DNA of 59,268 nucleotides from an uncultured Bdellovibrionales bacterium. Lineage in GTDB: Bacteria; Patescibacteriota; Minisyncoccia; Moranbacterales; GWC2-37-73. The DNA lies in the NCBI GenBank assembly GCA_964452415.1, contig CAYVME010000002.1, forward strand, positions 1 to 59,268, written 5' to 3'. Below, piece after piece: positions 2,304-48,025 of this stretch. Position 1 is the stretch's first letter. Each line of letters starts with the position of its first letter. The position numbers were made by a program, and so were the translations under genes. The notes beneath the pieces are model-generated. The model was not told the DNA's origin. It searched no databases and saw only the letters and a program-made list of their open reading frames with translations.

Positions 2304-3515
2304 TTAGTTTGAAGTTGTTGTTGTAATGTCTTGTTGTGTAGGAGCGGTGAAAATATTCTTGAACAATTCTCGAATTTTGTCATAGTTGTCTCCGATTGGA
2401 AGCAAGATATATCCAGTTTCTGGTCTTTGTTCTGGATTGTACAAAAGTCCTTCGGCATTGTTTTCCAGAACCCGTTGAGCTATTTGTGGATTGCTCATTT
2501 TTCCTTCAATTTCAAACAACTTCTTCATTTCCCAGGCTTGCAAATCAGTTTTCACATTGTTTCCGAGACTCTCAATGATTCCATTGACCTTGTTGAAATC
2601 GGTCAAAGTTCCAGCAGAAAGAGCTTTCTCCTTGATTTTCTGAATCACAACCTGTTGTCTTTTGGCTCTGTCAAAATCACTGGTTGTTTTTCGAGATCTT
2701 GCATAGCAAAGAGCTTGTTCCCCGCTGAGAGTCTGCTTTCCAGCTGGAAGCTTGAAATCTCCACCACATTCAACATTTGGGTTTGTGCAGAGAGGATATT
2801 GGGCGGTTATCTTCCCAGGCGTTCCGAGAGAGGTCTTTCTTCTTTTAATTTCAAAATTACCCGTTGGTTTCGTGAACACATATGCATCGCAAACTTTTTC
2901 TTCATTAAATTGCATAGCTTCTTCAAATGGTTGCTTCAAGTCAATTTCAATACCACCAATAGCATCAACCAAGTCTGTGAACCCCTTAAAATTAATAGCC
3001 AAAGCATAACTAACGGGTTGACCAACAATTTCACTTACCACAGTTTTCATATCTTCCATGCCACCGCCTTTTCTTTTTTCTTCCCCATAAGCATATACAG
3101 CATTAATTTTGCTCTTGGAATCTGCTGCCGGATCTTGAACATACAAATCTCGCGGAATTGAAAAAAGAGAAATCTTATTATCAGCAGGTGCAATGCTAGC
3201 AACCATAATTGTATCAGCCAAAAGACCTCCACCAGTCAAAGCCTCACCGCGCATACCCAAAAGCAACACATTAATTCTACCCTCTTTTTCTCCAATCAAC
3301 TCATTGCCAACACCAGGAATCATATGGGTCAAACCACTAAAAACATTACCACCACTAGAAATCCTATTAAAAACACTGCCTGTTTTCCATGCAAGAGCCG
3401 CGCCAACAAGCAAAAGAATTCCACCAATAATAAGGCTTATTTTGAGCCATTTTTTCATTCCTGTTTTTGTCTTTCCATCTTTACCATGGCGATTTAACAT
3501 TTGTCCATTTTCCAT
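2304..3515 (-). CDS. LytR-CpsA-Psr (LCP) family glycopolymer ligase
   Basis: 403-aa ORF with an N-terminal TM anchor and LCP core motifs (INVLLLGMRGE, GGLLADTIMVASI, SIPRDLYV). The start is uncertain, with alternative ATGs at 3500 and 3458. Confidence 0.85.
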   Translation of the reverse strand: MENGQMLNRHGKDGKTKTGMKKWLKISLIIGGILLLVGAALAWKTGSVFNRISSGGNVFSGLTHMIPGVGNELIGEKEGRINVLLLGMRGEALTGGGLLADTIMVASIAPADNKISLFSIPRDLYVQDPAADSKSKINAVYAYGEEKRKGGGMEDMKTVVSEIVGQPVSYALAINFKGFTDLVDAIGGIEIDLKQPFEEAMQFNEEKVCDAYVFTKPTGNFEIKRRKTSLGTPGKITAQYPLCTNPNVECGGDFKLPAGKQTLSGEQALCYARSRKTTSDFDRAKRQQVVIQKIKEKALSAGTLTDFNKVNGIIESLGNNVKTDLQAWEMKKLFEIEGKMSNPQIAQRVLENNAEGLLYNPEQRPETGYILLPIGDNYDKIRELFKNIFTAPTQQDITTTTSN

Positions 3516-3560
3516 AAAAAATATTTTTACTCTTAATTAAATAACTTGGAATTAATCTGC

Positions 3561-4709
3561 TTAATTATGACTCAGTTTCTCATAAATAGCAAGCATCTTT
3601 TGTGCTGATTTTTGCCAAGAAAAAAAGCTAATTCTTTTTTTGCCATTTGAAATTAGCTTATTTCTGAGATCTTCATCCTTGCAGATATCATACAATTTTT
3701 TTGAAAAATCATCAAGTGATGATACTTCGAAGTATAATGCGCCATCAGTGGCAATTTCTTTCAAACTTGAGATATTGGAGCAAATAACAGGAACCCCTTG
3801 ACTCATTGCTTCCAGTGGTGGAATTCCAAATCCTTCATATAAAGATGGAAAGGCAAAGACATGCGCCGAAGCAAAAATGGCTCTCTTATCCTCTTCATCA
3901 ATAAAGCCCGGAAAGAAAACCTTATCTCCCAATCCAAGCTCTTGAACTGCCGTGTCAATCCTGGAATCGAAATTTTTACCTTTTCTGTTTCCACAAATAA
4001 CCAGATCGACATCCCCCAAGTCCTTCTGGACATTGCCAAAAGCCATCACCAATTGATCCAAATTTTTTCTTGGTTGAAGCGTGCCCACATACAAGACGAA
4101 TTTTTTTGGCAAGGCATATTTTTTTCTAACCAATTCCAATTTCTCAGGCGAAACATCCTGATTCAAAAAATCTTCACTGATCGCATTATGAATCCACTCA
4201 ACTTTTTCGGGAACAATTTTATAATATTCAATAATCTCGTTTCGAGTAAACTCAGAAACTCCCACAATTTTGTCAGCGCGTTTCAAGCTAAGCGGGATCA
4301 ACATTTTCAAAAACAAAAGATCAGCCAATCTGATGAACTGTGAAAAAAAATTGAAAGAAATGTCATGCACGATTGTCACAATCTTAATCTTTTTTGAAAC
4401 AAAAAACGGAGTGATGTATTGAGTGTGAAAAACATCAACCGGATTCTTGGCAAGATATCTCGGCAGGGTCCAAAAATTCCAACTGAATTTATTTTTACTT
4501 GGAAGACTTACAATTTCAAAATTATTTTTCCCAACAATTCCCAATTGCTTAGCAATCTCATCCAAACCCTCTTTTTCCGTAACATCCGTGAATAATCTGA
4601 AATTATGCTCAGATTCCAATTGCGCAAAATTTTTCACCAAATTAAAAATAACAACCTCATCGCCAGTTCTATTTTTTCCTATTAATCTGACATCAATTCC
4701 AATATTCAT
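3561..4709 (-). CDS. GT4 family glycosyltransferase
   Basis: 382-aa ORF with the GT-B EX7E region (YEGFGIPPLEAMSQGVPVICSN). Confidence 0.85.
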   Translation of the reverse strand: MNIGIDVRLIGKNRTGDEVVIFNLVKNFAQLESEHNFRLFTDVTEKEGLDEIAKQLGIVGKNNFEIVSLPSKNKFSWNFWTLPRYLAKNPVDVFHTQYITPFFVSKKIKIVTIVHDISFNFFSQFIRLADLLFLKMLIPLSLKRADKIVGVSEFTRNEIIEYYKIVPEKVEWIHNAISEDFLNQDVSPEKLELVRKKYALPKKFVLYVGTLQPRKNLDQLVMAFGNVQKDLGDVDLVICGNRKGKNFDSRIDTAVQELGLGDKVFFPGFIDEEDKRAIFASAHVFAFPSLYEGFGIPPLEAMSQGVPVICSNISSLKEIATDGALYFEVSSLDDFSKKLYDICKDEDLRNKLISNGKKRISFFSWQKSAQKMLAIYEKLSHN

Positions 4710-4710
4710 A

Positions 4711-4745
4711 GCTTTCAGCTGTCAGCTTTTAGCTTTCAACTTTTG
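4711..4745. repeat. Short 'word' repeat (GCTTTCAGCTGTCAGCTTTTAGCTTTCAACTTTTG)
   Basis: Degenerate oligonucleotide words of the same kind as at 14445, 38413, 42983 and 46640. It lies directly upstream of the GT4 start. Confidence 0.5.
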
Positions 4746-4771
4746 TTAAAATTTAAAAATGTATTCAAATT

Positions 4772-4887
4772 TTGTCAGTTCAATTATTTTCCTTTTTGGC
4801 CCATATGCAACGAGAGTGAATCGGAGCTTTTGGATATTGGGCATTCATCCAAAAGCGTGCCAGAAATAAAGATAATTGAACTGACAA
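4772..4887. repeat. Conserved structured intergenic element, copy A
   Basis: Three nested helices: an outer 16-bp inverted repeat (4772-4787 / 4872-4887), a middle helix (4793-4800 / 4859-4866) and an inner hairpin (4826-4856). The core is near-identical to copies at 6210-6398 and 8115-8211. Confidence 0.8.
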
Positions 4888-4906
4888 TCCACAGGCAAAG
4901 CAAAAG

Positions 4907-6187
4907 CTAAACAGACTCGAAATTATTATTAGCCCCTACAGTAATTCCAACAACGAATCCTAGCAAAATCACGCCAAAATGCAAGTCCCAGAGCCAATGA
5001 TCCAAAAATATTGGCGACAAAAGTGAAAGCCACATAGCAAAATGAAAAACACTCTTTTTCCAAGCATAAAATCCAAAAGAAACAGAAAGTGCCAACAATA
5101 AAAGCATAGCAAAAAAACCAACTTCTGCCCACACCAAAAGAAAAACATTGTGGACAGGCTGATATGTCCAAGCCGAATCCTTAGGATTTTTCACTGTCAA
5201 TTCTTGAACATAGTTACCCACACCCACCCCAAAGAAAACATTTTCGGAAATTATTTCTTTCCCCTGATTGAAATACAACGCTCTTTCATTTATCGATTTT
5301 TGCTCCAATCTTGCACCAAAGTCAGTGCGAGCAAAAATAAGCTCCGAATGCCAAAAAGTTAGTGTTGCCAAAATAAAAAATACAACAACCAACGGCTTGA
5401 TGATTTTCAAAAAACCGATTCTAAAAAACACAGCCACCATAGCCAAAATCAGTGCCAGAAAAGCACTTCGACTCAGACTTGAAAAAAGCCCGAAAGAAAA
5501 ACTCACCAAAGCAACATACAAAAAAATATTTTCATTTTTCCCTCTCTTTTTTTCATAAAAAAGCCACAAAACCAAGATTATTCCCAAGGCCATCGCATAG
5601 CCGAAAATATTCGGATGATCAAAACTTCCATATGATCTCAAGTGACGAATCATCTGACTATTTTCACTATAAATCTCCAAATATGAAACTCCTCCATCGA
5701 CAACAGAATGACTGGCCAATCCCAACCATTTGCTAGCAAAAGCATTTTGAGCAAAAAATTGCCAAATTCCAAGCCATGCAGAGAGCATTAAACCTGAAAT
5801 AAAACAAAAAAGAAGTCTGGTTTTGCTTTTAAAAGAAGCAATGAGAAATGCCAAAATTGCAGCCAACAAAATCCAACCTGCTCGTTGAACTGCGAGCATC
5901 ACATTATCAGCCCAAAAAACAGAGATTGCCGTCAAAATAACAAACAGGAAAAATGCACTCCATCTCTTTATTGAAAATTTAAAAATGGAAGCTATCATAT
6001 TTTCACGATATTTGTTAATTGCCAACAGTACAACAACTAGAACAATTACGACATCCGCAACATAGACACTTCCCGTCAAATATTCATTTTGATTTCCATT
6101 GATCATCCCCTGCTCAAAAATCCACCTAGTTTGCCAAGGCAATAGAAAAACCAACAAGAATGTTCCGATTTCAACAATTTTTTTCAT
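4907..6187 (-). CDS. O-antigen ligase / Wzy-like polymerase family membrane protein
   Basis: 426-aa polytopic ORF with Wzy_C-type motifs (SLSRSAFLALILAMV and FFGVGVGNY). Confidence 0.75.
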   Translation of the reverse strand: MKKIVEIGTFLLVFLLPWQTRWIFEQGMINGNQNEYLTGSVYVADVVIVLVVVLLAINKYRENMIASIFKFSIKRWSAFFLFVILTAISVFWADNVMLAVQRAGWILLAAILAFLIASFKSKTRLLFCFISGLMLSAWLGIWQFFAQNAFASKWLGLASHSVVDGGVSYLEIYSENSQMIRHLRSYGSFDHPNIFGYAMALGIILVLWLFYEKKRGKNENIFLYVALVSFSFGLFSSLSRSAFLALILAMVAVFFRIGFLKIIKPLVVVFFILATLTFWHSELIFARTDFGARLEQKSINERALYFNQGKEIISENVFFGVGVGNYVQELTVKNPKDSAWTYQPVHNVFLLVWAEVGFFAMLLLLALSVSFGFYAWKKSVFHFAMWLSLLSPIFLDHWLWDLHFGVILLGFVVGITVGANNNFESV

Positions 6188-6209
6188 TATATGATTTTAT
6201 TTACTTTGA

Positions 6210-6398
6210 TTTTTTGCGAACCCATTTTCTTTTTTGGCCCAATGCATCGTGCTTCGCACTCTTTCAAACCCCTCGGTTTGAATAATTCCGCCACGGGAAA
6301 ACCCAGTTTTTCCCGACCCCTTTCCTGAATCGAAGCTTTTGGATATTGAGCATTCATCCAAAAGCGTGCCAAAAAATGGAAACGGGCGAAGCAAAAAA
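6210..6398. repeat. Conserved structured intergenic element, copy B (expanded)
   Basis: Same core and inner hairpin (6335-6365) as copies A and C, closed by TTTTTTGC (6210-6217) / GCAAAAAA (6391-6398). It carries an ~85-nt insertion holding three extra small hairpins. Confidence 0.8.
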
Positions 6399-6415
6399 TC
6401 CCGTGCAATAAGAAA

Positions 6416-8065
6416 CTATTCCTTATTTAATAGCAACCCTACCGCCACTCCCAAGAAAACCCAAACGAATCCCAGAAAAATTCCGGAGTTAAACAGATTC
6501 GGAATGATGATTGCGAAAAGTCCAAGCATGACAAAGACAAGATCGAAATTTTCACCTTTTGATTTCACGAAGCTAAAGATTGAAAAAACAAAAATATATC
6601 CAAACAAAATCACCAAAGACAAAAATCCAATGAGTCCACTGCCTAGCCAAACTTCCAAGAAAAGATTGCTCGCATTGAGTCCAGCGCCTCTGGAATCATT
6701 TCCCAAAATTTCAGAAATACTCCCCCAGCCTGTTCCCAAAACTGGATGAGATTTTATCTGCTCAAAGACAACTCGATAAATGCTTGCTCGAATTCCAACA
6801 TTTGGGTCTGGCCTTGAAACTTCTTGAATGACTCTCCCACTCAACATTTCTCTATCAATATCCTCAAGGTTTATGTATTTGCAAGAATAAGCTTCCAATT
6901 CTTCGATCTTTGCAATTTTTTCTGGCGCAGATTTTCCAATCTCGCAAGAAATGGTAATTTTTTGCAAGCCACCTGTACTTTGAGCTCTTTGCCCAAGCTG
7001 AAAACTTGTCAGCTTGAAAATATATATAAACCCAACGGCGACAAGCACAATCAAAAAGATTTTTCCGAATTCCAAAAGCCACCCAATCCAATTCCATTTT
7101 TGTTTCATCAAAATCCAAAAATTGCCCCAAAATTTTCCAGCAACTTTTTGTGAGTCACTTTTTCCATAAAACAAAGCCAACTTCAAATATCCAAAAATCA
7201 CAATCACTGCCCCAATCCAAGCACTACGGGAAACAGTCAGAAACAAAGTTATGAAAATTAAAAAAAGAAAAACATACAAAAATACGCACGAAGATGACTG
7301 GCAACTCATGATTGATGATTTCTTTCTAAGCAAATGAAACATGGACAATACGATAGCCAGCAAAAACACAATATACACTCCCAACCAATCCGCCTCCACA
7401 AATGTTCCATTTGGTCTGCCAGGCATCACCTCAAAAGAATTCCAACCATATGAAAAAGCCAGATTTTGCCAAATCGCATACAAACAAACAACCACGCCAG
7501 TTGAGAGAAAAAATGGAGCAATTCGTTTCAAATCCTCAAATGATTGCACAAAAATTCTGGTCAAGAAATATATTCCTACAAATGAAGCAGCGACGATTGC
7601 TTGCTTAAAACTCATACCTTTATTAACAGAAGCAAGCGCGCTCACAAATCCACCGACAACGAAAAGCACTGGCAAAAGATCGATCCAAGTCCATTTTGGC
7701 CAAAATTCACCCTTTGGTGCAGGCATTTTTTTGGTCAAATATCGTCCAAGCAAAGCCAAAATAAGCACAGTTAGCAGCAATTGGAATGGCCTGATTTGCA
7801 CTCCAAAAGCCACTGGGGCAAGGTTTATGTTCTCCAGAGCCAACGAACCGATAAACAGAGTGAAAGCCCATCCTGGACGGTACAATGCCAGCAGAGCGCA
7901 AAGCACCACGAAAAACCCGAAGTCCCCAGCATTTTTGAATGGCAAAAATCCCACATTTGCAAACCAAATCGCGAAGCAAGCCAAAATCACATTAGCCAAA
8001 ATCAAATATGTTTTGATAGCATTTTTTTCAAAAAGGTCCAGTAACTGTTTCAAATATTTTTCCAT
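6416..8065 (-). CDS. O-antigen ligase / Wzy-like polymerase family membrane protein with an inserted soluble loop
   Basis: 549-aa polytopic ORF with Wzy_C-type motifs (TVSRSAWIGAVIVIFG, HPVLGTGWGS). Confidence 0.75.
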   Translation of the reverse strand: MEKYLKQLLDLFEKNAIKTYLILANVILACFAIWFANVGFLPFKNAGDFGFFVVLCALLALYRPGWAFTLFIGSLALENINLAPVAFGVQIRPFQLLLTVLILALLGRYLTKKMPAPKGEFWPKWTWIDLLPVLFVVGGFVSALASVNKGMSFKQAIVAASFVGIYFLTRIFVQSFEDLKRIAPFFLSTGVVVCLYAIWQNLAFSYGWNSFEVMPGRPNGTFVEADWLGVYIVFLLAIVLSMFHLLRKKSSIMSCQSSSCVFLYVFLFLIFITLFLTVSRSAWIGAVIVIFGYLKLALFYGKSDSQKVAGKFWGNFWILMKQKWNWIGWLLEFGKIFLIVLVAVGFIYIFKLTSFQLGQRAQSTGGLQKITISCEIGKSAPEKIAKIEELEAYSCKYINLEDIDREMLSGRVIQEVSRPDPNVGIRASIYRVVFEQIKSHPVLGTGWGSISEILGNDSRGAGLNASNLFLEVWLGSGLIGFLSLVILFGYIFVFSIFSFVKSKGENFDLVFVMLGLFAIIIPNLFNSGIFLGFVWVFLGVAVGLLLNKE

Positions 8066-8114
8066 TTTGTTTTCTAAAATATAATAATACTTAAATATTT
8101 ACACAGCAATGTGA

Positions 8115-8211
8115 GACCATTTTTCTTTTTGGCCCATATGCAACGAGAGTGAATCGGAGCTTTTGGATATTGAGTATTTATCCAAAAGCGTGCCAGAAAC
8201 GGGAAATGGTC
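8115..8211. repeat. Conserved structured intergenic element, copy C
   Basis: Outer helix GACCATTT (8115-8122) / AAATGGTC (8204-8211), middle helix 8126-8133 / 8192-8199, inner hairpin 8159-8189. Confidence 0.8.
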
Positions 8212-8251
8212 GAGCAATTGCGTAAGTCGAAATAAATAGGCAAAACAATAT

Positions 8252-9415
8252 TCACCATGCATTTTTTTCCTCCTTAATAATATTCAAAAATTTGTGCACG
8301 AATTTGTCCCAAGAAAAATGGAGGGCTCTTTCTTTTCCCTTGGTCGCAAGTCTTGAGCGCAAATGATCATTTGTCAAAACATTTCGAAGGACCATCGCCA
8401 AATCGTCAACATCGCTCGGATTGCAATACAAAACAGCATCAGAGCCAACCTCAGGAAGAGAAGATTTTTTTGAAGTGATCACAGCGATCCCCTGGTTCAT
8501 TGCCTCAAGCACAGGAAGTCCAAATCCTTCATATAAAGAAGGATACACAAAAACAGAAGCGTTTTTATACAAGGCAGGCAAATCAGCTTGCTGAACAAAA
8601 CCAAGCAGGTCGACTTCTTTTTCAAGTTCGAGTCCCTGCACTATTGCTTCAACATCCGCAATCAATGGAGCAAGCTCAGGCATCATCTTTCCAGAAATAA
8701 CCAAGCGTGGAAGCCAACTGGCTCGACCATATGATTTGAGCAAAATTTTGTATGCTCGAAGAACACTCTCGGTGTTTTTGCGAAGATCCAATCCCCCTCC
8801 AGTATAGATGTACCCTCGTTTAATCCCATATTCATTCAAAACTTCTTCGCTTTTTTTCTCATCAACTTCTTTTTTATATATATCATCAACATCAACATGA
8901 CTGACAGAGATTTTGGCAGGATCGATTCCCAATTGTTGAATCAAATCTTTTTCGGTGCGATGCGAAACTGCAATAATCTTGTCTGATTTTTTTATGGCTT
9001 TCTTGCTGAGTCTCCAGAAATATTTCTTTCGCCAATTGTTCAGATACTGAGGGAAAAATTCCAACAGCACATCGTGCACCAACATAATGTGTTTCATGTT
9101 TTTTGGCATGATGGTGGCACATTGAAACAAGCTGAAGAAAATGTCACAACCGTCTTTTTTGGCAAACTTGGGCAAAAGATGCTTCTGCCACCAAATCGCA
9201 CGAATGATGTCGTCTCTTTTATACATTTTTGGCAAGAAAACTTTTTTGCTGAAATTTGTTGGCAATTCAAAATCAACATCCTCTTCAAGATATAGAATGT
9301 ATTCATTCTTGCCATCATTTGAAATTTCAATCAATTTCTTGATGAAATTTGCAGTGACTTGTCCGATGCCGGTGTTTGGCTTGCGAAGAAAAGATGCATT
9401 AATTCCAATACGCAT
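8252..9415 (-). CDS. GT4 family glycosyltransferase
   Basis: 387-aa ORF with the EX7E region (YEGFGLPVLEAMNQGIAVITS). Confidence 0.85.
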   Translation of the reverse strand: MRIGINASFLRKPNTGIGQVTANFIKKLIEISNDGKNEYILYLEEDVDFELPTNFSKKVFLPKMYKRDDIIRAIWWQKHLLPKFAKKDGCDIFFSLFQCATIMPKNMKHIMLVHDVLLEFFPQYLNNWRKKYFWRLSKKAIKKSDKIIAVSHRTEKDLIQQLGIDPAKISVSHVDVDDIYKKEVDEKKSEEVLNEYGIKRGYIYTGGGLDLRKNTESVLRAYKILLKSYGRASWLPRLVISGKMMPELAPLIADVEAIVQGLELEKEVDLLGFVQQADLPALYKNASVFVYPSLYEGFGLPVLEAMNQGIAVITSKKSSLPEVGSDAVLYCNPSDVDDLAMVLRNVLTNDHLRSRLATKGKERALHFSWDKFVHKFLNIIKEEKNAW

Positions 9416-9538
9416 TTTGATTTAAACATTAATCGTATTAAGCCTAAAACATTACTCTTCAAGTATAGCTCAATTTGAGCAAAAAGAAAGAGCGCGCCAG
9501 TTGTTACTGACCCGCCCTTGTTCTTCTGCTTTCATCAT

Positions 9539-9754
9539 TTAAATCCTTTTTTTCAACCTCATACAGAGGTAAAGAATCAATAGACCAAAAATAATGAAGA
9601 CAGGAATTATTATCTCCCCGACCGTTTTTAAATCTTCAACGGCAGACCAGTTAAAAACATGCAACAACAACAAAATAACAGCTGTTGCTACAAGCGATAA
9701 AAAAAATATCGCCGATAACATGAAAATCATTTCCTTTGTTTTCTCAGTTGGCAT
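9539..9754 (-). CDS. Small two-TM membrane protein (hypothetical)
   Basis: 71-aa ORF with two hydrophobic helices. It has a strong SD (GGGGAGGG) 4 nt upstream of the ATG and its own promoter. Confidence 0.6.
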   Translation of the reverse strand: MPTEKTKEMIFMLSAIFFLSLVATAVILLLLHVFNWSAVEDLKTVGEIIIPVFIIFGLLILYLCMRLKKRI

Positions 9755-14444: not shown

Positions 14445-14524
14445 AAGTCCATCAAGTCGAAAGTCCATCGAGTCGAAAGCATTTTTGCTTTATAGACTTT
14501 ATGAACTTTATAGGCTTTTGACTC
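14445..14524. repeat. Long imperfect hairpin built from complementary 'word' repeats
   Basis: Left arm AAGTCCATCAAGTCGAAAGTCCATCGAGTCGAAAGC, loop ATTTTT, right arm GCTTTATAGACTTTATGAACTTTATAGGCTTTTGACTC. The arms pair in blocks with regular internal loops. Confidence 0.6.
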
Positions 14525-20489: not shown

Positions 20490-21879
20490 CAAATTTGAAA
20501 AAATCTCAGATTTCATTCAAGAAATGAAAAACAAAAACGAACCGGGTTCGGGAATTTTTTTTGTGGCAGAAAATGAAAAACCAAACGAGCAAATTTTGCA
20601 AAGCATTCAAGATCTGACCAAGGAACCAAAAATAGATCAGCCGGTGGCAGTTCTTAGTGAAGCCCACAAGAAACCAATCATCAAGAGCCCCAGTGGAACC
20701 GTTGTGGCATCCAGTTTGCACATGTTGCCTGAAGTTATGGATGCGGCTCCAAATTGCGGGATGAGAGTGATCAAAACTGATTTGAAGGATGAAGAAATGA
20801 CAAGCGAAAATATTGAACTTCTTTTTGATGAGATTAAAAAAACCATACCAACTGGCGGCCTGAGCGGAGAAGTGATTTCAAAAAACCTTGCCAATGAAAT
20901 TTTCGCCAGCGGAACCTCAGCACTGACAAAAAGATTTGAATTGAGAACACTAAATGAAATGGGAAACACCTATGAAAATGGAAATTTTTTCAAACCAGCC
21001 CAGCATCAATTGCTCGCTGATCCAACAAAATCAATACCATCAATAATCAAATGGATAGCAAAATTCAGATTGAATCTGCTCGGAGCAACCAACAGTCATT
21101 TTCTGTATCTTGCTAAAATATCCGAAATCACAAATCCCGAAAAAGCTGAGGCACTTGGACTGAAAGATGGCCAATATGTTTTTTTCATGCACACCGGATC
21201 AAGCATCGTGGGAAGATACACGGCTTCACTATACACGCCCAGAAAAATAAAAAGTTTTCTTCAAAGAACCATCGTTTCTTTCTTGAGAAAGGTTTCTCCA
21301 CAGCGCATAATATCAATTCTCCCCTCAGCAAGAAAAACAAACGATGCACTTTTTGCATATGACGGAGAAAGTGAAGCTGGAAAAATGTTTTTTTCAGCTC
21401 TGGGGGCAGTCAGCAACTATGGTTTTGCCAATCGCGCATTGATAACAAGAAGTCTTGATTTTACTTTGGAAAAATTTTTCAAAAGGCAAGTGGAAATGGA
21501 TTTATTGTATGATGCTCCACATGTTTTCTTGAGTCGAGAGAGACAATCAGACAAGACTCTTTGGATTCACCGCAATGGAGCAAACAGAGCATTTGGGCCC
21601 TCCTTGATGAGTGACCACGAGATCTTTCAAAAAACTGGAGAGCCAGTTTTGATTGCTCCATTTGAAGGAACGGCTGGATTCATAGGAGTTGGAACTGATG
21701 AAAATTCCCTGTCCTATTATTCTGCGAATCATGAAATTGGAAAAATTAAAGACCTTTCAATTACACCTGAAGAATACAAGGAACATGGAGAAAAGATTAT
21801 ATTTGAAATGGAAAAAAATAAGCTCATCACACTGGTCGCAAAAGTAGAGCCCATTAAAGTCTTAACATATCAAAAATGA
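20482..21879 (+). CDS. Divergent RtcB-family (RNA 3'-phosphate ligase-like) protein
   Basis: By-eye motif alignment to RtcB: EAH (for PDxH), NCGM (DIGCGM), NSHF (GNHF), MHTGSS (HSGSRG), IHRNGA (HRKGA) and SANHEIGK (SxxHGAGR). I prefer the start at ATG 20482 (MNNKFEK), which overlaps the upstream stop by 8 nt. Confidence 0.6.
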   Translation: MNNKFEKISDFIQEMKNKNEPGSGIFFVAENEKPNEQILQSIQDLTKEPKIDQPVAVLSEAHKKPIIKSPSGTVVASSLHMLPEVMDAAPNCGMRVIKTDLKDEEMTSENIELLFDEIKKTIPTGGLSGEVISKNLANEIFASGTSALTKRFELRTLNEMGNTYENGNFFKPAQHQLLADPTKSIPSIIKWIAKFRLNLLGATNSHFLYLAKISEITNPEKAEALGLKDGQYVFFMHTGSSIVGRYTASLYTPRKIKSFLQRTIVSFLRKVSPQRIISILPSARKTNDALFAYDGESEAGKMFFSALGAVSNYGFANRALITRSLDFTLEKFFKRQVEMDLLYDAPHVFLSRERQSDKTLWIHRNGANRAFGPSLMSDHEIFQKTGEPVLIAPFEGTAGFIGVGTDENSLSYYSANHEIGKIKDLSITPEEYKEHGEKIIFEMEKNKLITLVAKVEPIKVLTYQK

Positions 21880-22466
21880 AAATAATTTCCATTTCCGGAC
21901 TGGATGGCTCTGGGAAATCAACACAATTGGAACTTTTGAAAAAGGATTTTGAATCGCAAGGGAAAAAAGTTTTCTATTTCCATGCGGTCAATTTCAGCAT
22001 TGCCAATTTGCTCAATAAAAATAAAAAGGCTGGTGCCAACAATGGCGTCACCCAGGCCAGCTGGATCAAGATCTTATTGCGTTTTTTGGCGATGAGAATA
22101 GACATTTTTCGCTTCAAAAAACTCAAAAAAGACTTGTCCTCCCAGGGATACGATTTCATCCTTTCTGACCGCTTTTTCTATGATTCAGTGGTCAATTTAG
22201 CCTATCTAATGACTCAAAAAATGCCCCCGGGCATCGAAAAAAGCATACCCCGCTCTGATATCGCTTTTTACCTAAAAACCGATCCTAAGTCAATAATGAA
22301 GCGCAAGCGAGCTCCTGAGCAAGGTTTTTCCTATCTTGAGAGCAAAAATGCCCTATATGACACTTGTGCCCCAATTTGGGACATGATTACCGTGGACGGG
22401 AATGATTCAGCCGAAAATATCCATGAAAAAATTGCATCGTACGCAATACAAGGTTTCAATAAGTGA
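21876..22466 (+). CDS. Thymidylate-kinase-like P-loop kinase
   Basis: 196-aa ORF with a P-loop (ISGLDGSGKSTQ) and a Tmk-like motif (SDRFFYDSVVNLAY). It shares an ATGA start/stop overlap with the RtcB-like gene. Confidence 0.65.
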   Translation: MKIISISGLDGSGKSTQLELLKKDFESQGKKVFYFHAVNFSIANLLNKNKKAGANNGVTQASWIKILLRFLAMRIDIFRFKKLKKDLSSQGYDFILSDRFFYDSVVNLAYLMTQKMPPGIEKSIPRSDIAFYLKTDPKSIMKRKRAPEQGFSYLESKNALYDTCAPIWDMITVDGNDSAENIHEKIASYAIQGFNK

Positions 22467-22482
22467 GGGCTACCTTTTTGAT

Positions 22483-22509
22483 TTGACTGTTTTCTTTTGA
22501 GACTATAAT
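22483..22509 (+). promoter_or_regulatory. Candidate promoter for wzx
   Basis: TTGACT (22483-22488) and TATAAT (22504-22509), but the spacer is only 15 nt. Confidence 0.35.
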
Positions 22510-22647
22510 GAACGACAGTGAATTCTTAGCGAGCAATCATAGTATTTCGATTGCGAAGCGTGTCGAGAAAGGAAACAGGCAAAGCAAAAAATTTCAAAAG
22601 AACCATGTATTGCGTACAACCTCATAAAACATATAACGAAAATATCC

Positions 22648-24156
22648 ATGAAAAAACAATCAGTAGTTTCATCAATACTCTGGCTCACAATTGCGGAAGT
22701 GTTTTTCAATCTTTCGGGCTACATCATTCATTCAAGCCTTGGAAGAATGCTTGGACCTGCTGACTATGGAAGATACGCCCTCATTATAACCCTGACCACG
22801 ATGGTGATCATGCTCATTGGTAATGGAATCCCAACTGCAATGAGCAAATATCTCAGCGAAATTTTTGAAACAAAACCAGATTTGGTTTTCGTGATCAAAA
22901 AACAAGCCGCAATTCTGCAATTCTCACTTATTGGAATTGTCACTTTGGCATTCTATCTCCTTGCGCCGGTCATCGCCGTTCTTTTGGGCGATCCATCTCT
23001 GACCCCACTGCTCAAAATTTCAACTTTCATCATTCCATCATATGCAGCTGCTTCTTTCTATCTCTACTATTACATCGGCATTCATCGCTTCTCCATGCAA
23101 TCAACCATGAAGATTATTCGCTCTTTTGCTCGCATCGGTTTCGTGCTTTGGCTGGCATATCTCTTCAAACTCAAAGGCTCAATCGCATCATACATTCTTT
23201 CTCCTGCTCCAGTTTTCCTGATTGCATTTCTCGTGGACAAATTTTGGATAAACAAACAATTTCCAAAAAAATCAATTCACACTTTTGATTGGAAAAAACT
23301 CTTGAATTATGCCTGGCCAGTGACGCTCTTTATGCTTTTTTATGAAATGCTGATTTCTTTGGATTTGTACATGGTCAAAGCTTTGCTTCACGATGATGCC
23401 TTGACTGGAATTTACAACGCTTCACTGACGGTTGGACGCATTCCCTATTATCTTTTCTATGCACTTACCATGGTGATGTTGCCGTCAATTTCACGCACAA
23501 CTTCTCAAAATGATCACACCGAAACAAATCGAATCATCAGTCAAACTTTTCGCATAATGATAATGCTTCTTTTTCCTTTGACCATTGCCATGATTGCCTA
23601 TGCTTCGCCATTGGTATCTCTCTTTTTTGGCTCAAAATTTGCCTTGGCCGCACTCTCAACGCAAATATTAACATTTGGCGTTGCATTCCTCACCGTTTTC
23701 TATGTTATGTGTTTTGCGCTCAATGGCGCAGGCATGGTCTTCATCCCAATGTACATCTCACTTTTCGGAATGATTCTAAATGGCGTCCTGAATTATTTTT
23801 TGGTTTTGAAATATGGAATCACAGGAAGCGCCATTGCCACCTCAATCACAGCGATTGTCATCACAATCATAATTCTTTTTTTCATTCACAAGCACTTCAA
23901 AGGATTAATGCGAATTAAAAGTTTCTTGAAATTTTTCCTGGCTGGAACCGTGATGACACTGGCATCATTTCTTTTTCCCGCACACAATTTGCTCTTCATC
24001 CTCTGGAGCTTTGTTTTGACCGGAATCTACATCATGGCTTTATACTTTCTGGGAGAATTCACCAAGAAAGATATCTCTCTTTTTCACCACATGCTTTTTT
24101 CCCGAAAGAAAAAAGCATCCCCTGCTTCCCCAGAAGATGCCAACCAATTAAATTAA
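22648..24156 (+). CDS. wzx: Wzx-type oligosaccharide flippase (MOP superfamily polysaccharide biosynthesis protein)
   Basis: 502-aa ORF with about 14 hydrophobic helices. Its N-terminal region is typical of polysaccharide flippases. Confidence 0.7.
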   Translation: MKKQSVVSSILWLTIAEVFFNLSGYIIHSSLGRMLGPADYGRYALIITLTTMVIMLIGNGIPTAMSKYLSEIFETKPDLVFVIKKQAAILQFSLIGIVTLAFYLLAPVIAVLLGDPSLTPLLKISTFIIPSYAAASFYLYYYIGIHRFSMQSTMKIIRSFARIGFVLWLAYLFKLKGSIASYILSPAPVFLIAFLVDKFWINKQFPKKSIHTFDWKKLLNYAWPVTLFMLFYEMLISLDLYMVKALLHDDALTGIYNASLTVGRIPYYLFYALTMVMLPSISRTTSQNDHTETNRIISQTFRIMIMLLFPLTIAMIAYASPLVSLFFGSKFALAALSTQILTFGVAFLTVFYVMCFALNGAGMVFIPMYISLFGMILNGVLNYFLVLKYGITGSAIATSITAIVITIIILFFIHKHFKGLMRIKSFLKFFLAGTVMTLASFLFPAHNLLFILWSFVLTGIYIMALYFLGEFTKKDISLFHHMLFSRKKKASPASPEDANQLN

Positions 24157-38370: not shown

Positions 38371-38412
38371 ATAATAATTTTACAATATTCCTAAAGACCA
38401 AAAAGTATTTCT

Positions 38413-38449
38413 CTTTATAGACTTTATGGACTTTCAACTTTATGGACTT
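38413..38449. repeat. 'Word' repeat (CTTTATAGACTTTATGGACTTTCAACTTTATGGACTT)
   Basis: Same word family as 14487-14524, 38977-39012, 43580-43606 and 46640-46737. Confidence 0.55.
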
Positions 38450-38930: not shown

Positions 38931-38976
38931 ATCCTCTAAATTTACCGCTTCGCATTTTGTATTTCTGAGTTTTGCA

Positions 38977-39012
38977 CTTTATAGACTTTATGAACTTTTG
39001 ACTTTATGAACT
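38977..39012. repeat. 'Word' repeat (CTTTATAGACTTTATGAACTTTTGACTTTATGAACT)
   Basis: Same family as 38413-38449. It lies just downstream of the ugd stop. Confidence 0.55.
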
Positions 39013-40393: not shown

Positions 40394-40783
40394 CTAATCC
40401 TTGAATTCAGAATTTATAACTCTTTTAGGTTTAAGGTATTTTTCCCTAAAATTTACCAACAAGCCCAATTTTTTATTCAAGGCAATCAAATATCTTTTGG
40501 TCTGATAAAAATCAGGCCTCTCTATTAACCTTTTTACTTTAAGCTCTAGAATTATCAAGTCCTCAACTAAAAAATCAATTTTATTTCTATTCGCTTTTTC
40601 TCCTTCGAATGATGCGGGTAGAAATTTCTCTCTTTCAAATCTCAACTTTCTCTCTTCAAGTTTCTTTTCGAGCAAATCTCCATATTGTTTTTCATTACAA
40701 TATCTTCCAAGCTCATTTTGAACATCAAAAAGCGCTCCATTGATACCATACGACAGCTCAGCATAAATAAGCTCTTGCTTCAT
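40394..40783 (-). CDS. GxxExxY family protein (PD-(D/E)XK nuclease-like fold)
   Basis: YGINGALFDVQNELGRYCNEKQYGDLLEKKL ... IDFLVEDLIILELKV. I prefer the ATG at 40783; the track start at 40795 is a TTG lying inside a repeat. Confidence 0.7.
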   Translation of the reverse strand: MKQELIYAELSYGINGALFDVQNELGRYCNEKQYGDLLEKKLEERKLRFEREKFLPASFEGEKANRNKIDFLVEDLIILELKVKRLIERPDFYQTKRYLIALNKKLGLLVNFREKYLKPKRVINSEFKD

Positions 40784-40835
40784 TTTTATTCGCAATTAGT
40801 GGATTAGTATTTATTCGTGGATTGGCATCACATCC
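40782..40835. repeat. ATTCGCAATTAGTGGATT... repeat family, copy 2
   Basis: About 90% identical, by eye, to 43612-43665. It spans the stop codon of the GT2 gene and encodes its last residues (DVMPIHE*). Confidence 0.7.
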
Positions 40836-41779
40836 TTATTACTTCTCTTTCTGACAACATACATTGGCCTTCCAATCACTTCTTCGTGAATATTTGCAAC
40901 ATACAGAGCCAACAGGCCAATCGAAGACAGCAATATTCCAACCAAGAAAACCAACAAAATTGCCAAACCTTCAGCATCTGAAAATTTTGCAATCAAGAAT
41001 TGATTACGAAAAAAGTATCTCCCCACAAGAATGAAAAAGCCAACTGGCCCAGAAGTGACAACAATCAAAATCCCGAGATATCCCGCCAACTTGAGCGGAA
41101 ACAAACTCAACGAAACAAAACTGTTCATGGCCAATTTCAAAAGCATCCAAGTGGAATAACTTGCAGTTCCGTGCAAGCGATCTTTGGCATCAAAATTAAT
41201 ATACGCCCTCTTAAAACCGAGCCAGTCAATCAAAGCTCTGGTCATTCGACTTTTTTCAGTAAACTTATTAAATTCCTCAATAACAACCCTGTCAATCAAT
41301 CGAAAATCCGTTGCATTTGGAATAATTCTAATTTCGGCAATTTTATTTATGAGCTCGTAAAACAAAACCGAACCAACTCGTTTAATGAAACCCTCACTTT
41401 TTGAACTGTTGCGAACGCCAACCACCACTTCCGCTCCAGCTTCCCACTTGGCAATAAAATCCGGAATGAGCTCTGTTGGATGCTGAAGATCACCATCAAT
41501 CATGATGCAAGCATCCCCTTTACAATTATTGATGCCGGCGGTTGTGGCAAGCTCCTTGCCAAAATTACGCGAAAAATCAAGAAATCTCACTGATTCATCT
41601 TGGGCGGAAAGCTTCTCAATTTCAACCATTGTTCCATCCCTGCTCCCATCATTCACAAAAAGAATGTCAAAAACATATCCGTTCTCCAGTTTTGCAAAAA
41701 CTTTTTTCAATTCAGCATAAAGCGGAAGAATGTTTTCCTTTTCATTATAAACAGGGATAATTATTGTTATCGATTTCAT
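40811..41779 (-). CDS. GT2 polyprenyl-phosphate glycosyltransferase (GtrB/ArnC/Dpm1-like)
   Basis: 322-aa ORF with ITIIIPVYNEKENILPLYAEL, NDGSRDGT and IDGDLQH, plus two C-terminal TM helices. Confidence 0.85.
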   Translation of the reverse strand: MKSITIIIPVYNEKENILPLYAELKKVFAKLENGYVFDILFVNDGSRDGTMVEIEKLSAQDESVRFLDFSRNFGKELATTAGINNCKGDACIMIDGDLQHPTELIPDFIAKWEAGAEVVVGVRNSSKSEGFIKRVGSVLFYELINKIAEIRIIPNATDFRLIDRVVIEEFNKFTEKSRMTRALIDWLGFKRAYINFDAKDRLHGTASYSTWMLLKLAMNSFVSLSLFPLKLAGYLGILIVVTSGPVGFFILVGRYFFRNQFLIAKFSDAEGLAILLVFLVGILLSSIGLLALYVANIHEEVIGRPMYVVRKRSNKDVMPIHE

Positions 41780-42982: not shown

Positions 42983-43063
42983 AGCCTATAAAGCTAAAAG
43001 CCTATGAAGTCCGTAAAGCATTTCACTTGATGGACTTGATGGACTCTGTGACTTGATGAACTT
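42983..43063. repeat. Long imperfect hairpin built from complementary 'word' repeats
   Basis: Core AAGTCCGTAAAG (43007-43018) pairs with CTTGATGGACTT (43026-43037) at 11 of 12 positions. The flanking words extend the stem imperfectly. Confidence 0.6.
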
Positions 43064-43606: not shown

Positions 43607-43611
43607 TATTT

Positions 43612-43665
43612 ATTTTTATTCGCAATTAGTGGATTGGCATTCATTCGTGGATTAGCATCACATCT
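43612..43665. repeat. ATTCGCAATTAGTGGATT... repeat family, copy 3
   Basis: Near-identical to 40782-40835. It sits in the same position, at the 3' end of the paralogous GT2 gene. Confidence 0.7.
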
Positions 43666-44596
43666 TTATCACCTCTTTAATATTGTAATTCATTTTTCCT
43701 TGTCCTTTGTAATAATTCTTCAGCATGATGTCGGCAAGAAGGCCGAAAACGAAAAGCTGAATTCCAACAAGCACCAAGAAAATTCCAACCAAGGGCCAAA
43801 TCTTTTCCGAAAGTGATCCCCCGAAGAAAAGTTTTTCAATTGCCATCCAGCCAAGAATCAAAAAACCACCGAATGAGAGGATCATCCCTGTTCCACCAAA
43901 AAGATGGAGTGGTCGGTTTGAATATTTTCGCCAAAACCAAACAGAAATCATGTCCACGACTCCCTTCATGCCTCTTTTCCAATTATATTTAGTCACGCCA
44001 TGAACTCGCGGATGATGAGTCACTTTAACTTCTCCAATTTTGTATCCTTGAAGTTCCAAAATAGCAGGAATGAAACGATGCATTTCTCCAAACAGATCCA
44101 CATCCTTGAAACACTCTTTTTTATATGCCTTAAGAGAACAACCGCTGTCGTGAATTGTGTCGTTGATCAAAACCTTGCGAAGAAGATTGGCCGCTCTGGA
44201 TGCCAAGTGCTTGCTCAAAGTGTCTTTTCTTTGATAGCGCCAGCCAGAAACAACATCAAATCCTTTCCCCATTTCTTCCAGAAGAAGCGGGATATCAGCT
44301 GGATCATTTTGCAAATCACTGTCCATCGTCACAATTATTTCACCCTGAGCTTGCTTGAAACCAGCATCCATGGCAGCAGTTTGCCCAAAATTTTTGCGAA
44401 ACTTGATCAAAATGAGTGGAGAAAGACCCTCGCAATCCTTCACTGTTCCATCTTTCGATCCATCATCAATAAAAATAATTTCAAATGTTTTCCCAAGTTT
44501 CTGACAAGCTTCCACAATCTTTGCATGAAGCTCCCTGACATTCCCTTCCTCATTATACACAGGAGCCACAATTGATAAATACGGTTTTTCACTCAT
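43658..44596 (-). CDS. GT2 polyprenyl-phosphate glycosyltransferase (GtrB/ArnC/Dpm1-like)
   Basis: 312-aa ORF with LSIVAPVYNEEGNVRELHAKI, DDGSKDGT and MDSDLQN, plus two C-terminal TM helices. Confidence 0.85.
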   Translation of the reverse strand: MSEKPYLSIVAPVYNEEGNVRELHAKIVEACQKLGKTFEIIFIDDGSKDGTVKDCEGLSPLILIKFRKNFGQTAAMDAGFKQAQGEIIVTMDSDLQNDPADIPLLLEEMGKGFDVVSGWRYQRKDTLSKHLASRAANLLRKVLINDTIHDSGCSLKAYKKECFKDVDLFGEMHRFIPAILELQGYKIGEVKVTHHPRVHGVTKYNWKRGMKGVVDMISVWFWRKYSNRPLHLFGGTGMILSFGGFLILGWMAIEKLFFGGSLSEKIWPLVGIFLVLVGIQLFVFGLLADIMLKNYYKGQGKMNYNIKEVIKM

Positions 44597-44722: not shown

Positions 44723-44760
44723 AAAAGAAGAATAAAACAGCTCCAAAATAGCGAGTCGAG

Positions 44761-44800
44761 ATTCGCAATTAGTGGATTGGCATTTATTCGTTGATTAGTA
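44761..44800. repeat. ATTCGCAATTAGTGGATT... repeat family, copy 4
   Basis: ATTCGCAATTAGTGGATTGGCATTTATTCGTTGATTAGTA. Here it lies in the 5' leader of a plus-strand gene. Confidence 0.6.
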
Positions 44801-44825
44801 TAATAATTAAAATAAACAAAAAAAT

Positions 44826-46065: not shown

Positions 46066-46100
46066 CAAAAAAAATTCAGCACTGTGCTGAATTTTTTTCT
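46066..46100. terminator. Bidirectional rho-independent terminator
   Basis: Stem ATTCAGCA (46074-46081) / TGCTGAAT (46085-46092), flanked by an A8 run and a T7 run. Confidence 0.8.
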
Positions 46101-46295
46101 TTTATTCCCGCTTTTGACTTTCGACTTTATGTTGTACTTGAAACAAAAAAATGTTAAAATTAAAACATGAATGAGGATGATTTGAAAATATCAGCCTAAT
46201 AAAAGAAGAGTTTGGTGATAAAATTAAACTTAACTTGGTCATAAAAAACAAAGACAACTCAATTGCAAAAATTGAATACGATATAAATTTCAATA

Positions 46296-46610: not shown

Positions 46611-46737
46611 GTCATCCCGGACTTGATCCGGGATCCAAACCTGCTTTCGACTTTCGATTTCTTTGCTTCCCTTTTTCAACTTTTAACTTTCAACTTTATG
46701 GACTTTTTATTTTCCCGCTTTCCCCTTTCAACTTTTT
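46611..46737. repeat. Composite repeat, left copy (GTCATCCCGGACTTG hairpin unit plus an 83-nt 'word' block)
   Basis: The block 46640-46722 is about 95% identical, by eye, to 47925-48007 in the same orientation. Both copies are preceded by GTCATCCCGGACTTG. Confidence 0.8.
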
Positions 46738-47869: not shown

Positions 47870-48025
47870 GTCATCCCGGACTTGCCCATCCGCCTCTGGA
47901 AGGATCCAGAATCCAGACCCGCATCCTGCTTTCGACTTTCGATTTCTTTGCTTCCCTCTTTCAACTTTTAACTTTTGACTTTATGGACTTTTTATTTTCC
48001 AGCTTTCGACTTTCGATTTTTTTTG
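47870..48025. repeat. Composite repeat, right copy
   Basis: GTCATCCCGGACTTG at 47870, a ~40-nt insertion relative to the left copy, then the shared block at 47925-48007. Confidence 0.8.

Follow-up and report, generated by a model that had tools for sequence, protein, structure and literature searches.

The window analysed here is the whole 59,268-nt stretch of contig CAYVME010000002.1 (GenBank assembly GCA_964452415.1), from an uncultured bacterium of the Moranbacterales, and it carries four copies (A, B, C and D) of a non-coding, hairpin-forming repeat element, three of which (A-C) occupy consecutive intergenic gaps of a glycan operon. We conclude, with a probability of about 0.72, that A-D belong to a new, previously undescribed family of miniature inverted-repeat transposable elements (MITEs) of Moranbacteria and Parcubacteria (Patescibacteria), which has a conserved RNA-like core and is closest to bcr1. 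The elements are repeated, have inserted as units, possess terminal repeats and target duplications, covary in their helices and fold preferentially on one strand. Structured MITEs as a kind are known already from bcr1 or ERIC, and two traits of the present elements are out of the ordinary, namely stronger conservation of the core than of the termini and the slow divergence of a resident copy. This particular family is new, as is the phylum that hosts it, and no description of a structured RNA or MITE for the candidate phyla radiation (CPR) or Moranbacteria was found in the literature searched.

A dispersed repeat family in Patescibacteria

The initial annotation described nested-hairpin elements in three gaps between co-directional minus-strand genes, and its positions for A, B and C were confirmed, all three lying on the + strand, antisense to these genes (Table 1). 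All four copies point the same way in the window, D being sense to its neighbors. Exactly three matches to the inner hairpin GCTTTTGGAT-N11-ATCCAAAAGC are present in the window (at 4826-4856, 6335-6365 and 8159-8189), against a mean of 0.01 in shuffled sequences, among which three occurrences were reached in 0 of 100. A and C share an 81-nt core with 95% identity. B carries, relative to both, an additional insertion of ~80 nt, which recurs at 95% identity in another species, at locus L106 of the metagenome-assembled genome (MAG) ELA218 (loci outside the window are designated by L numbers).

A scan for the inner hairpin over one genome per species located the family, among the matches listed, only in Patescibacteria, in at least eight MAGs: the Moranbacteria UBA12142, GW2011_GWE2_36_40, GW2011_GWC2_37_8 and STA_10, the Parcubacteria GWD2_38_11 and GWC1_36_108, and SMAG_U2610 and ELA218. 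The rest were chance matches in other phyla. Genomes carry on the order of 10 copies or more; within the fetched stretches, up to 13 copies were counted per MAG (inner-hairpin and covariance-model matches together). A covariance model was built from 45 copies, and the search with it returned additional diverged copies in the same loci as well as the fourth window copy, D. A metagenome scan in which the inner hairpin was left free added 73 loci, and single metagenome contigs of 230-480 kb carry 6-7 exact-pattern copies each. Viral contigs and phage and plasmid collections gave no family match. The Rfam scan returned nothing over the elements at E ≤ 10 (4500-8500) and no gathering-score match in the whole window.

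The copies are all intergenic and occur in either orientation, and no open reading frame (ORF) of ≥80 aa lies in the copy-bearing gaps; read by eye, the consensus has many stops in every frame. The ORFs next to copies, 104 altogether, match 139 Pfam families, each present in three ORFs at most. Among them are ABC transporters, S1, SMC, ClpB, tRNA ligases, PNPase and RmuC, and no transposase appears among the top 25 of the 139 families. The proposal that the element is tied to the glycan operon was not borne out: the family is spread over at least eight Moranbacteria/Parcubacteria species, its flanking genes are unrelated, and a syntenic operon is free of copies. Where the neighboring genes are co-directional, antisense copies outnumber sense copies by 37 to 17 (p = 0.009); nine further copies lie between divergent genes and eight between convergent genes.

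These surveys bear on a reading in which the elements are gene-cassette boundaries, similar to integron attC sites, or unusual terminators between GT4, Wzy, Wzy and GT4. Three co-oriented copies do bracket single genes in the window, the two Wzy genes share no sequence relationship, as would be expected of swapped cassettes, and long hairpins follow stop codons. Copies are, however, mostly solitary among housekeeping genes and form no arrays, and the ends GTTACGC...GCGTAAG have the wrong order and consensus for attC (RYYYAAC/GTTRRRY). Ordinary terminators, consisting of a hairpin and a T-run, often adjoin copies, so that the element is not the terminator of these organisms, and two thirds of the copies between co-directional genes are antisense. 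The initial annotation had already held that the element is no simple terminator, and we agree: no T-run follows A, B or C on either strand, and a terminator scan of 3400-9600 gave six terminator-like sites, none of them at an element. We consider cassette boundaries or terminators very improbable.

Ends, target duplications and empty sites

Copies measure 97-245 nt and are non-coding, with the main subfamily, type 1a, uniform at 133-134 bp. Type 1a copies have the ends CAGAAGTTACGC...GCGTAAGTCCTA and the imperfect terminal inverted repeat CAGAAGTTACGC / TAGGACTTACGC. At one fixed offset, an exact 5-bp AT-rich direct repeat abuts both ends of 6 out of 19 distinct type 1a copies and, in a larger set, of 8 out of 34, and the flanking 5-mers match at ≥4 of 5 positions in 21 of the 34. 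Shuffled pairings at the same offset gave a mean of ~1 and a maximum of 5, and never 8. The long subfamily, to which D belongs, bears a 22-bp terminal inverted repeat, GGATCATRCGCAATACATGGTTC, at both ends. D itself lies between exact 20-nt direct repeats, which double the beginning of the gene downstream and are a candidate target-site duplication; at L041 a 32-nt direct repeat abuts both terminal repeats.

Filled and empty orthologous sites were identified at L007/L027, L096/L030 and L065/L039. At the empty site L027 the whole hairpin is missing, outer stem included, and the outer stem is therefore the element's own and not a pre-existing target hairpin. This rules out insertion into pre-existing hairpins, an explanation considered for the different outer stems. 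The three outer helices of A, B and C do differ as originally described, but such differences do not exclude a MITE, since other members have conserved terminal repeats and target duplications, and orthologous sites have or lack whole copies together with their outer stems. The closing stems belong to the element as its arms, whose sequences have diverged between subfamilies and through compensatory substitution. Across the fetched loci and the window, ends that face inward always pair at a distance of 133-245 bp, bar five spurious pairings between separate copies.

Some copies adjoin one another. At L006 a type 2 and a type 1 copy stand head-to-head (1217-1358 on the - strand and 1360-1502 on the + strand), and tandem copies occur at L001 (5439-5580 and 5713-5910) and L113 (5940-6082, 6116-6269 and 6813-6956), which suggests that certain landing zones are preferred or that new copies insert next to older ones. 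A truncated remnant was seen at L045:270-345, where the lone right half of a long-subfamily copy (arm and terminal repeat) abuts a gene start.

Syntenic versions of the glycan operon allow individual insertions to be followed. L116 (JGI 3300022664 Ga0247854_1000073) holds the operon GT4-Wzy-...-Wzy-GT4-LytR-GT2-S41 with no family copy; its gaps at sites A and C measure 65 nt and 12 nt, respectively. In L115, a closer relative (Wzy 75% identical), site A is empty, as the genes overlap, and site B is a diverged type 2 copy. On these comparisons A and C are lineage-specific insertions. The Wzy called at L115:927-2354 (protein P0002, 475 aa) is ~49 residues longer at its N terminus than the window's 426-aa protein, probably an annotation artefact from a gene call running through the B-site element. 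L118 and L119 (Logan SRR446576/SRR446577, ~1.47 kb each), which come from independent short-read assemblies, encode the window's exact Wzy protein and end inside copies B and A, as is usual where a multi-copy repeat interrupts assembly. Where the window has copy B, L116 has a 2.5-kb insertion (3441-6001, also found in L117) that encodes a cyclodipeptide synthase, a protein with a DUF3800 domain and a REP-associated tyrosine transposase (RAYT; 3652-4158, NF047646, 85 bits). REP hairpins of 26 nt, GCAGGTTCAAGTTTGTAACTTGAACC and GCAGGTTRCAAACCTGC, lie on either side of the transposase gene; they are its own and are unrelated to the family described here.

The occurrence of this transposase exactly at the B site of a syntenic operon is one of several points in favor of a REP/REPIN-like or IS200/IS605-like mover of single-stranded DNA, for which a Y1 (HUH) transposase would recognize the folded core on one strand. 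Such a mover would fit a strand-specific fold (see below) and a core conserved above the termini. It would also fit a skewed orientation: 56 of 80 copies (49 of 63 in an earlier set) show a negative local GC skew when read in their own orientation, and the four window copies are co-oriented on a uniformly negative skew, although GC skew and gene direction are confounded, so that replication-linked orientation is inseparable from gene direction. Y1 elements, on the other hand, make no target duplication, whereas 5-bp and 20-32-nt duplications are seen here. The element, at 130-245 nt with a three-way junction, is not a 20-40-nt palindrome, and the folded strand is mostly the C-rich strand, where the opposite strand preference would be expected from IS608. 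The L116 protein is a genuine REP-associated transposase, but it has its own REPs and no counterpart near any copy, and L116 lacks a family copy; tblastn with this RAYT gave no match in the window or the other fetched loci, and it was rejected as the mobilizer. We regard a Y1-type mover as unlikely.

A three-way-junction core that folds on one strand

The initial annotation drew three nested helices in each copy. The helices fold as described, including the middle helix TTTTTGGC/GCCAGAAA with its one U.G pair. The purely nested arrangement does not hold, as a small third hairpin lies between the middle helix and the inner hairpin and makes the structure a three-way junction; in C, moreover, the stem extends beyond the outer helix originally proposed. 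In the consensus (window + orientation), P1 is a long stem formed by the two terminal arms, which are inverted repeats; it is broken by internal loops and contains tandem G.A/A.G in 5'-Py-GA-Pu contexts. The junction reads GGCC-AAUAG ... UCUUGA ... GU-GCC, P2 is a short hairpin with a GNRA cap (GACA or GAGA), and P3 is a 10-bp hairpin with the loop AUUGAGUAUUU of 11-12 nt. In A and C, P2 consists of two Watson-Crick pairs and possible tandem G.A around a GAGA loop. Subfamilies have extra hairpins at the P1/P2 junction (L030, L041 and L070), in the P3 loop (L088 and L001) or in place of the P2 top (window B). Predicted folding energies are -45.6 kcal/mol for A, -37.5 kcal/mol for C and -60.4 kcal/mol for B, with z-scores of -5 to -6.3. 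The + strand of A and C folds better than its complement, and the complementary hairpins, as carried by the operon mRNA, have energies of -27 to -66 kcal/mol. Comparison of the junction strands by eye with the hammerhead core (CUGANGA/GAAA/UH) revealed no resemblance, and a ribozyme of this type was set aside.

The helices are kept by compensatory changes across at least 45 copies, in line with the structured element first suggested. In an alignment made by MAFFT, with no structure model used, standard pairs fill 96.4% of pair cells, and double-change cells number 131 compared with 39 ± 8 in shuffles, counts that are not independent events because many copies share descent; slid-partner controls reached a paired fraction of ≤53%. 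All four P2 pairs covary (GUUG/CAAC, GCCG/CGGC, GAAA/UUUC, GCUA/UAGC and GAUAC/GUAUC). Outer P1 has double changes in 6 of 10 pairs, and the outer arm of A, which is homologous to the arm of L090, has three double substitutions relative to it, all of which leave the pairing intact. The first search pattern prescribed P3, but this helix covaries wherever the search left it free: type 2 copies (window D, L085, L006, L113 and L115) have GCGAGCAAUC/GAUUGCGAAGC as P3 and retain the loop AUAGUAUUUC, and metagenome variants include GGAA/UUCC, GAAU/AUUC and GCAAUC/GAUUGC. The strand preference is evident both in the pair cells, with 79 G.U versus 14 A.C, and in the predicted energies, the + orientation folding better in 54 of 62 copies (means of -47.5 versus -41.9 kcal/mol).

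Conservation after insertion could be gauged from L040 and L075, which share an insertion site and the same ATTTT duplication. Their elements are 94.6% identical, compared with 67-70% identity at third codon positions of the flanking genes, and the pair thus diverges about six times slower than synonymous sites. Such similarity means either that the inserted copy has been under purifying selection or that other copies have converted it. A fold kept on one strand, together with orthologous copies that change more slowly than synonymous sites, indicates that the sequence is constrained after insertion.

Two explanations were weighed against these data. The structure might be unselected, arising by template switching and gene conversion on quasi-palindromes in neutral selfish DNA. 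Template-switch correction yields long perfect arms, of which the 16-bp stem of A could be an example, and the many near-identical 134-bp copies are potential donors for conversion, which could explain the 95% identity of L040/L075. This process gives both-strand Watson-Crick symmetry, however, and not the observed excess of G.U over A.C; it leaves unexplained why one strand folds better in most copies, and also the conservation of unpaired parts, namely the GNRA loop, the junction GCGUGCC and the loop of P3, which persists where the stem beneath it has been replaced. We find an unselected structure improbable. Alternatively, the elements might be independently transcribed small RNA genes, with the repeats as gene copies, or antisense or cis-regulatory RNAs of the glycan operon. 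Covariation, GNRA loops, tandem G.A pairs and optional hairpins at junctions or loops do resemble functional RNA, orthologous copies are conserved well above synonymous sites, and a stand-alone gene would show mixed orientation relative to its neighbors. But terminal repeats, target duplications and filled and empty sites point to insertion as a unit, the region around the operon contains 17 promoter-like sites against 15.6 expected, with no terminator at the elements, and the upstream flanks have no conserved sequence beyond AT-richness. The flanking-ORF survey showed no link to glycan genes, and the syntenic operon is free of copies. Small RNA genes or operon-specific regulatory RNAs therefore seem a doubtful explanation.

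Copies and other repeats in the window

The coordinates of the window copies, their parts and the flanking genes are collected in Table 1. Insertion of D rewrote the C terminus of the upstream gene: the last 18 codons of ORF 21876-22466 (...NIHEKIASYAIQGFNK*) derive from the duplicated target and the left arm of D (22412-22466).

Table 1. Positions of the four window copies, their structural parts and associated genes and repeats
Feature	Position	Strand	Remarks
GT4	3561-4709	-	gene flanking copy A
Copy A	4772-4887	+	covariance-model match 4761-4902, 101 bits
Copy A, outer arm	4772-4787 with 4872-4887	+	16-bp stem
Copy A, P1 top	4793-4800 with 4859-4866	+	
Copy A, P2 region	4805-4822	+	GAGA loop
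Copy A, P3	4826-4835 with 4847-4856	+	
Wzy_C	4907-6187	-	gene between copies A and B
Copy B	6210-6398	+	covariance-model match 6225-6382, 58 bits
Copy B, outer arm	6210-6217 with 6391-6398	+	
Copy B, P1 top	6230-6238 with 6368-6376	+	
Copy B, insertion in place of P2 top	~6248-6326	+	~80 nt, folds as three small hairpins
Copy B, P3	6335-6344 with 6356-6365	+	
Wzy_C	6416-8065	-	gene between copies B and C
Copy C	8094-8236	+	covariance-model match, 125 bits; encloses 8115-8211 of the initial annotation
Copy C, terminal motifs	8098-8104 and 8220-8226	+	TTTACAC and GCGTAAG
Copy C, long stem	8106-8122 with 8204-8221	+	includes tandem G.A
Copy C, P1 top	8126-8133 with 8192-8199	+	
Copy C, P2 region	8138-8155	+	
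Copy C, P3	8159-8168 with 8180-8189	+	
GT4	8252-9415	-	gene beyond copy C
Direct repeat left of D	22412-22431	+	exact 20 nt, CGAAAATATCCATGAAAAAA; inside 3' end of ORF 21876-22466
Copy D	22434-22622	+	diverged long/type 2 member; covariance model, 27.1 bits; core 22464-22605
Copy D, terminal inverted repeat	22439-22455 and 22601-22617		GTACGCAATACAAGGTT / AACCATGTATTGCGTAC; 17-nt version of the long-subfamily repeat
Copy D, P3	22529-22538 with 22549-22559	+	stem sequence differs, loop AUAGUAUUUC kept
Direct repeat right of D	22637-22656	+	same 20 nt; contains start codon of downstream gene (22648)

Two other kinds of repeat were noted in the window. Periodic motifs of the type CTTTATGGACTTTCAACTTTATGGACT occur in intergenic DNA at 4720-4765, adjoining copy A, and at 14479-14523, 38404-38448, 38968-39012, 43017-43061 and 46091-46135, and also at 46640-46737 and 47925-48022 (98 nt, 92% identical). 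On the coding strand they read as AAAGT/AAAGC repeats with a spacing of ~11 nt. Two of them were checked (4720-4765 and 38404-38448), and both immediately precede the start of a minus-strand gene; the motifs may be a promoter or leader feature. A separate 68-nt repeat is found at the 3' ends of three minus-strand genes (40779-40846, 43609-43676 and 44752-44819); its first two copies are 88% identical, and it has two AATCCAC half-sites ~18 nt apart.

Proposed behavior and significance

The copies were inserted into AT-rich intergenic DNA, often beside terminators, by a transposase presumably supplied in trans; the 134-bp subfamily generates 5-bp duplications, and duplications of 20-32 nt flank two long-subfamily copies. 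We favor the idea that the subsequent constraint would come from the element acting as a transcribed structured RNA module, by analogy with bcr1; alternatively, the fold might be needed in single-stranded DNA. As A-C are antisense, the operon mRNA would carry weaker complementary hairpins between its cistrons, and any consequence for intercistronic processing, stability or pausing is probably incidental. The 81-nt direct repeats could also recombine out the two Wzy genes.

Several observations weigh against assignment to a MITE family with a selected RNA fold. No visible target duplication flanks A, B or C; A and B have inverted arms and lack the family terminal motif, and C has only TTACAC...GCGTAAG. 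The ~1.4 Mb of scanned loci and the window yielded neither a parent insertion sequence nor a transposase with matching ends. Conservation is higher in the core than at the termini, contrary to the pattern of an ordinary MITE, and the mixed orientation (37 antisense, 17 sense) is awkward for a purely cis-acting role in mRNA. The shared descent of many copies tempers the pair counts, the slow divergence comes from one clean orthologous pair and could also stem from gene conversion among copies, and RNA and single-stranded DNA are both candidates for the selected fold.

Some of these same observations have led us to entertain, more tentatively, that the three-way-junction core is itself the functional unit, either a structured RNA or a recognition module in single-stranded DNA, that is under purifying selection in each copy and is fitted with various terminal arms. 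The greater conservation of core than termini, the one-stranded fold, the loops kept while stems are replaced and the slowly diverging orthologous pair could all fit this possibility. If it were true, the core would either be an RNA of use to the host, present in many copies, that genome-reduced Patescibacteria have domesticated from a mobile element, or serve as the handle of a still unknown structure-recognizing mobilization system.

Patescibacteria have very small genomes, and their mobile DNA and non-coding RNAs are little known. The structured MITE family that we propose is of practical concern for MAG quality, as the repeat occupies entire intergenic gaps, interrupts short-read assembly and leads gene callers astray; the L115 Wzy call and the ORF that ends inside copy D are cases in point. 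If resident copies are indeed constrained, the core is a candidate functional RNA of an uncultured phylum, and the family would join bcr1 as a second, independent example of a MITE with a selected RNA fold. In the window, two unrelated Wzy genes are bracketed by three direct repeats, which are ready substrates for deleting or swapping surface-glycan polymerases.

Relationship to known elements

The footprints of the family, 5-bp and 20-32-nt repeats, recall those of the IS1634/IS1549 insertion sequences, a possible source of the transposase; that family makes AT-rich duplications of 5-6 bp and has two members with long variable direct repeats of 8-514 bp (PMC2266710). The likeness concerns footprints only and is a lead. 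No such transposase was found, no search having been aimed at one, and the long-subfamily ends start with GG and not with C.

REP/REPIN elements and their RAYTs are similar in being intergenic hairpin repeats; the logic of single-strand transposition would suit the strand-specific fold, and a RAYT is present in a related genome. The present elements differ in that they have no associated RAYT in the window or fetched loci, are much larger and branched, and are flanked by target duplications.

ERIC, Correia and RUP elements are likewise intergenic imperfect palindromes of 100-160 bp, often in co-transcribed regions, that occur in either orientation and have variants with internal insertions, and MITEs of this type have reported effects on mRNA processing (PMC3184786). 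They are essentially two-armed palindromes with TA or short duplications, whereas the family described here has a non-palindromic three-way-junction core, a one-strand bias and, in one subfamily, duplications of 20-32 nt.

The closest counterpart is bcr1 of the Bacillus cereus group, a group A interspersed repeat of ~155 bp that has 5-bp direct repeats and is transcribed, and in which compensatory changes keep a cruciform-like RNA with two stem-loops (PMC3184786). Transcription has been shown for bcr1 (PMC3184786), while for the present family it is a proposal; bcr1 also belongs to another phylum, and the two are likened by their features and not by sequence. The subfamilies with different termini that share a core, the GNRA loop of P2 and the recurring tandem G.A are particular to the family described here. 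In common, both are non-coding, dispersed elements of ~130-155 bp that occupy non-conserved positions between relatives and are flanked by 5-bp AT-rich direct repeats, and in both, compensatory changes keep a branched fold in which two independent stem-loops are carried on a closing stem.

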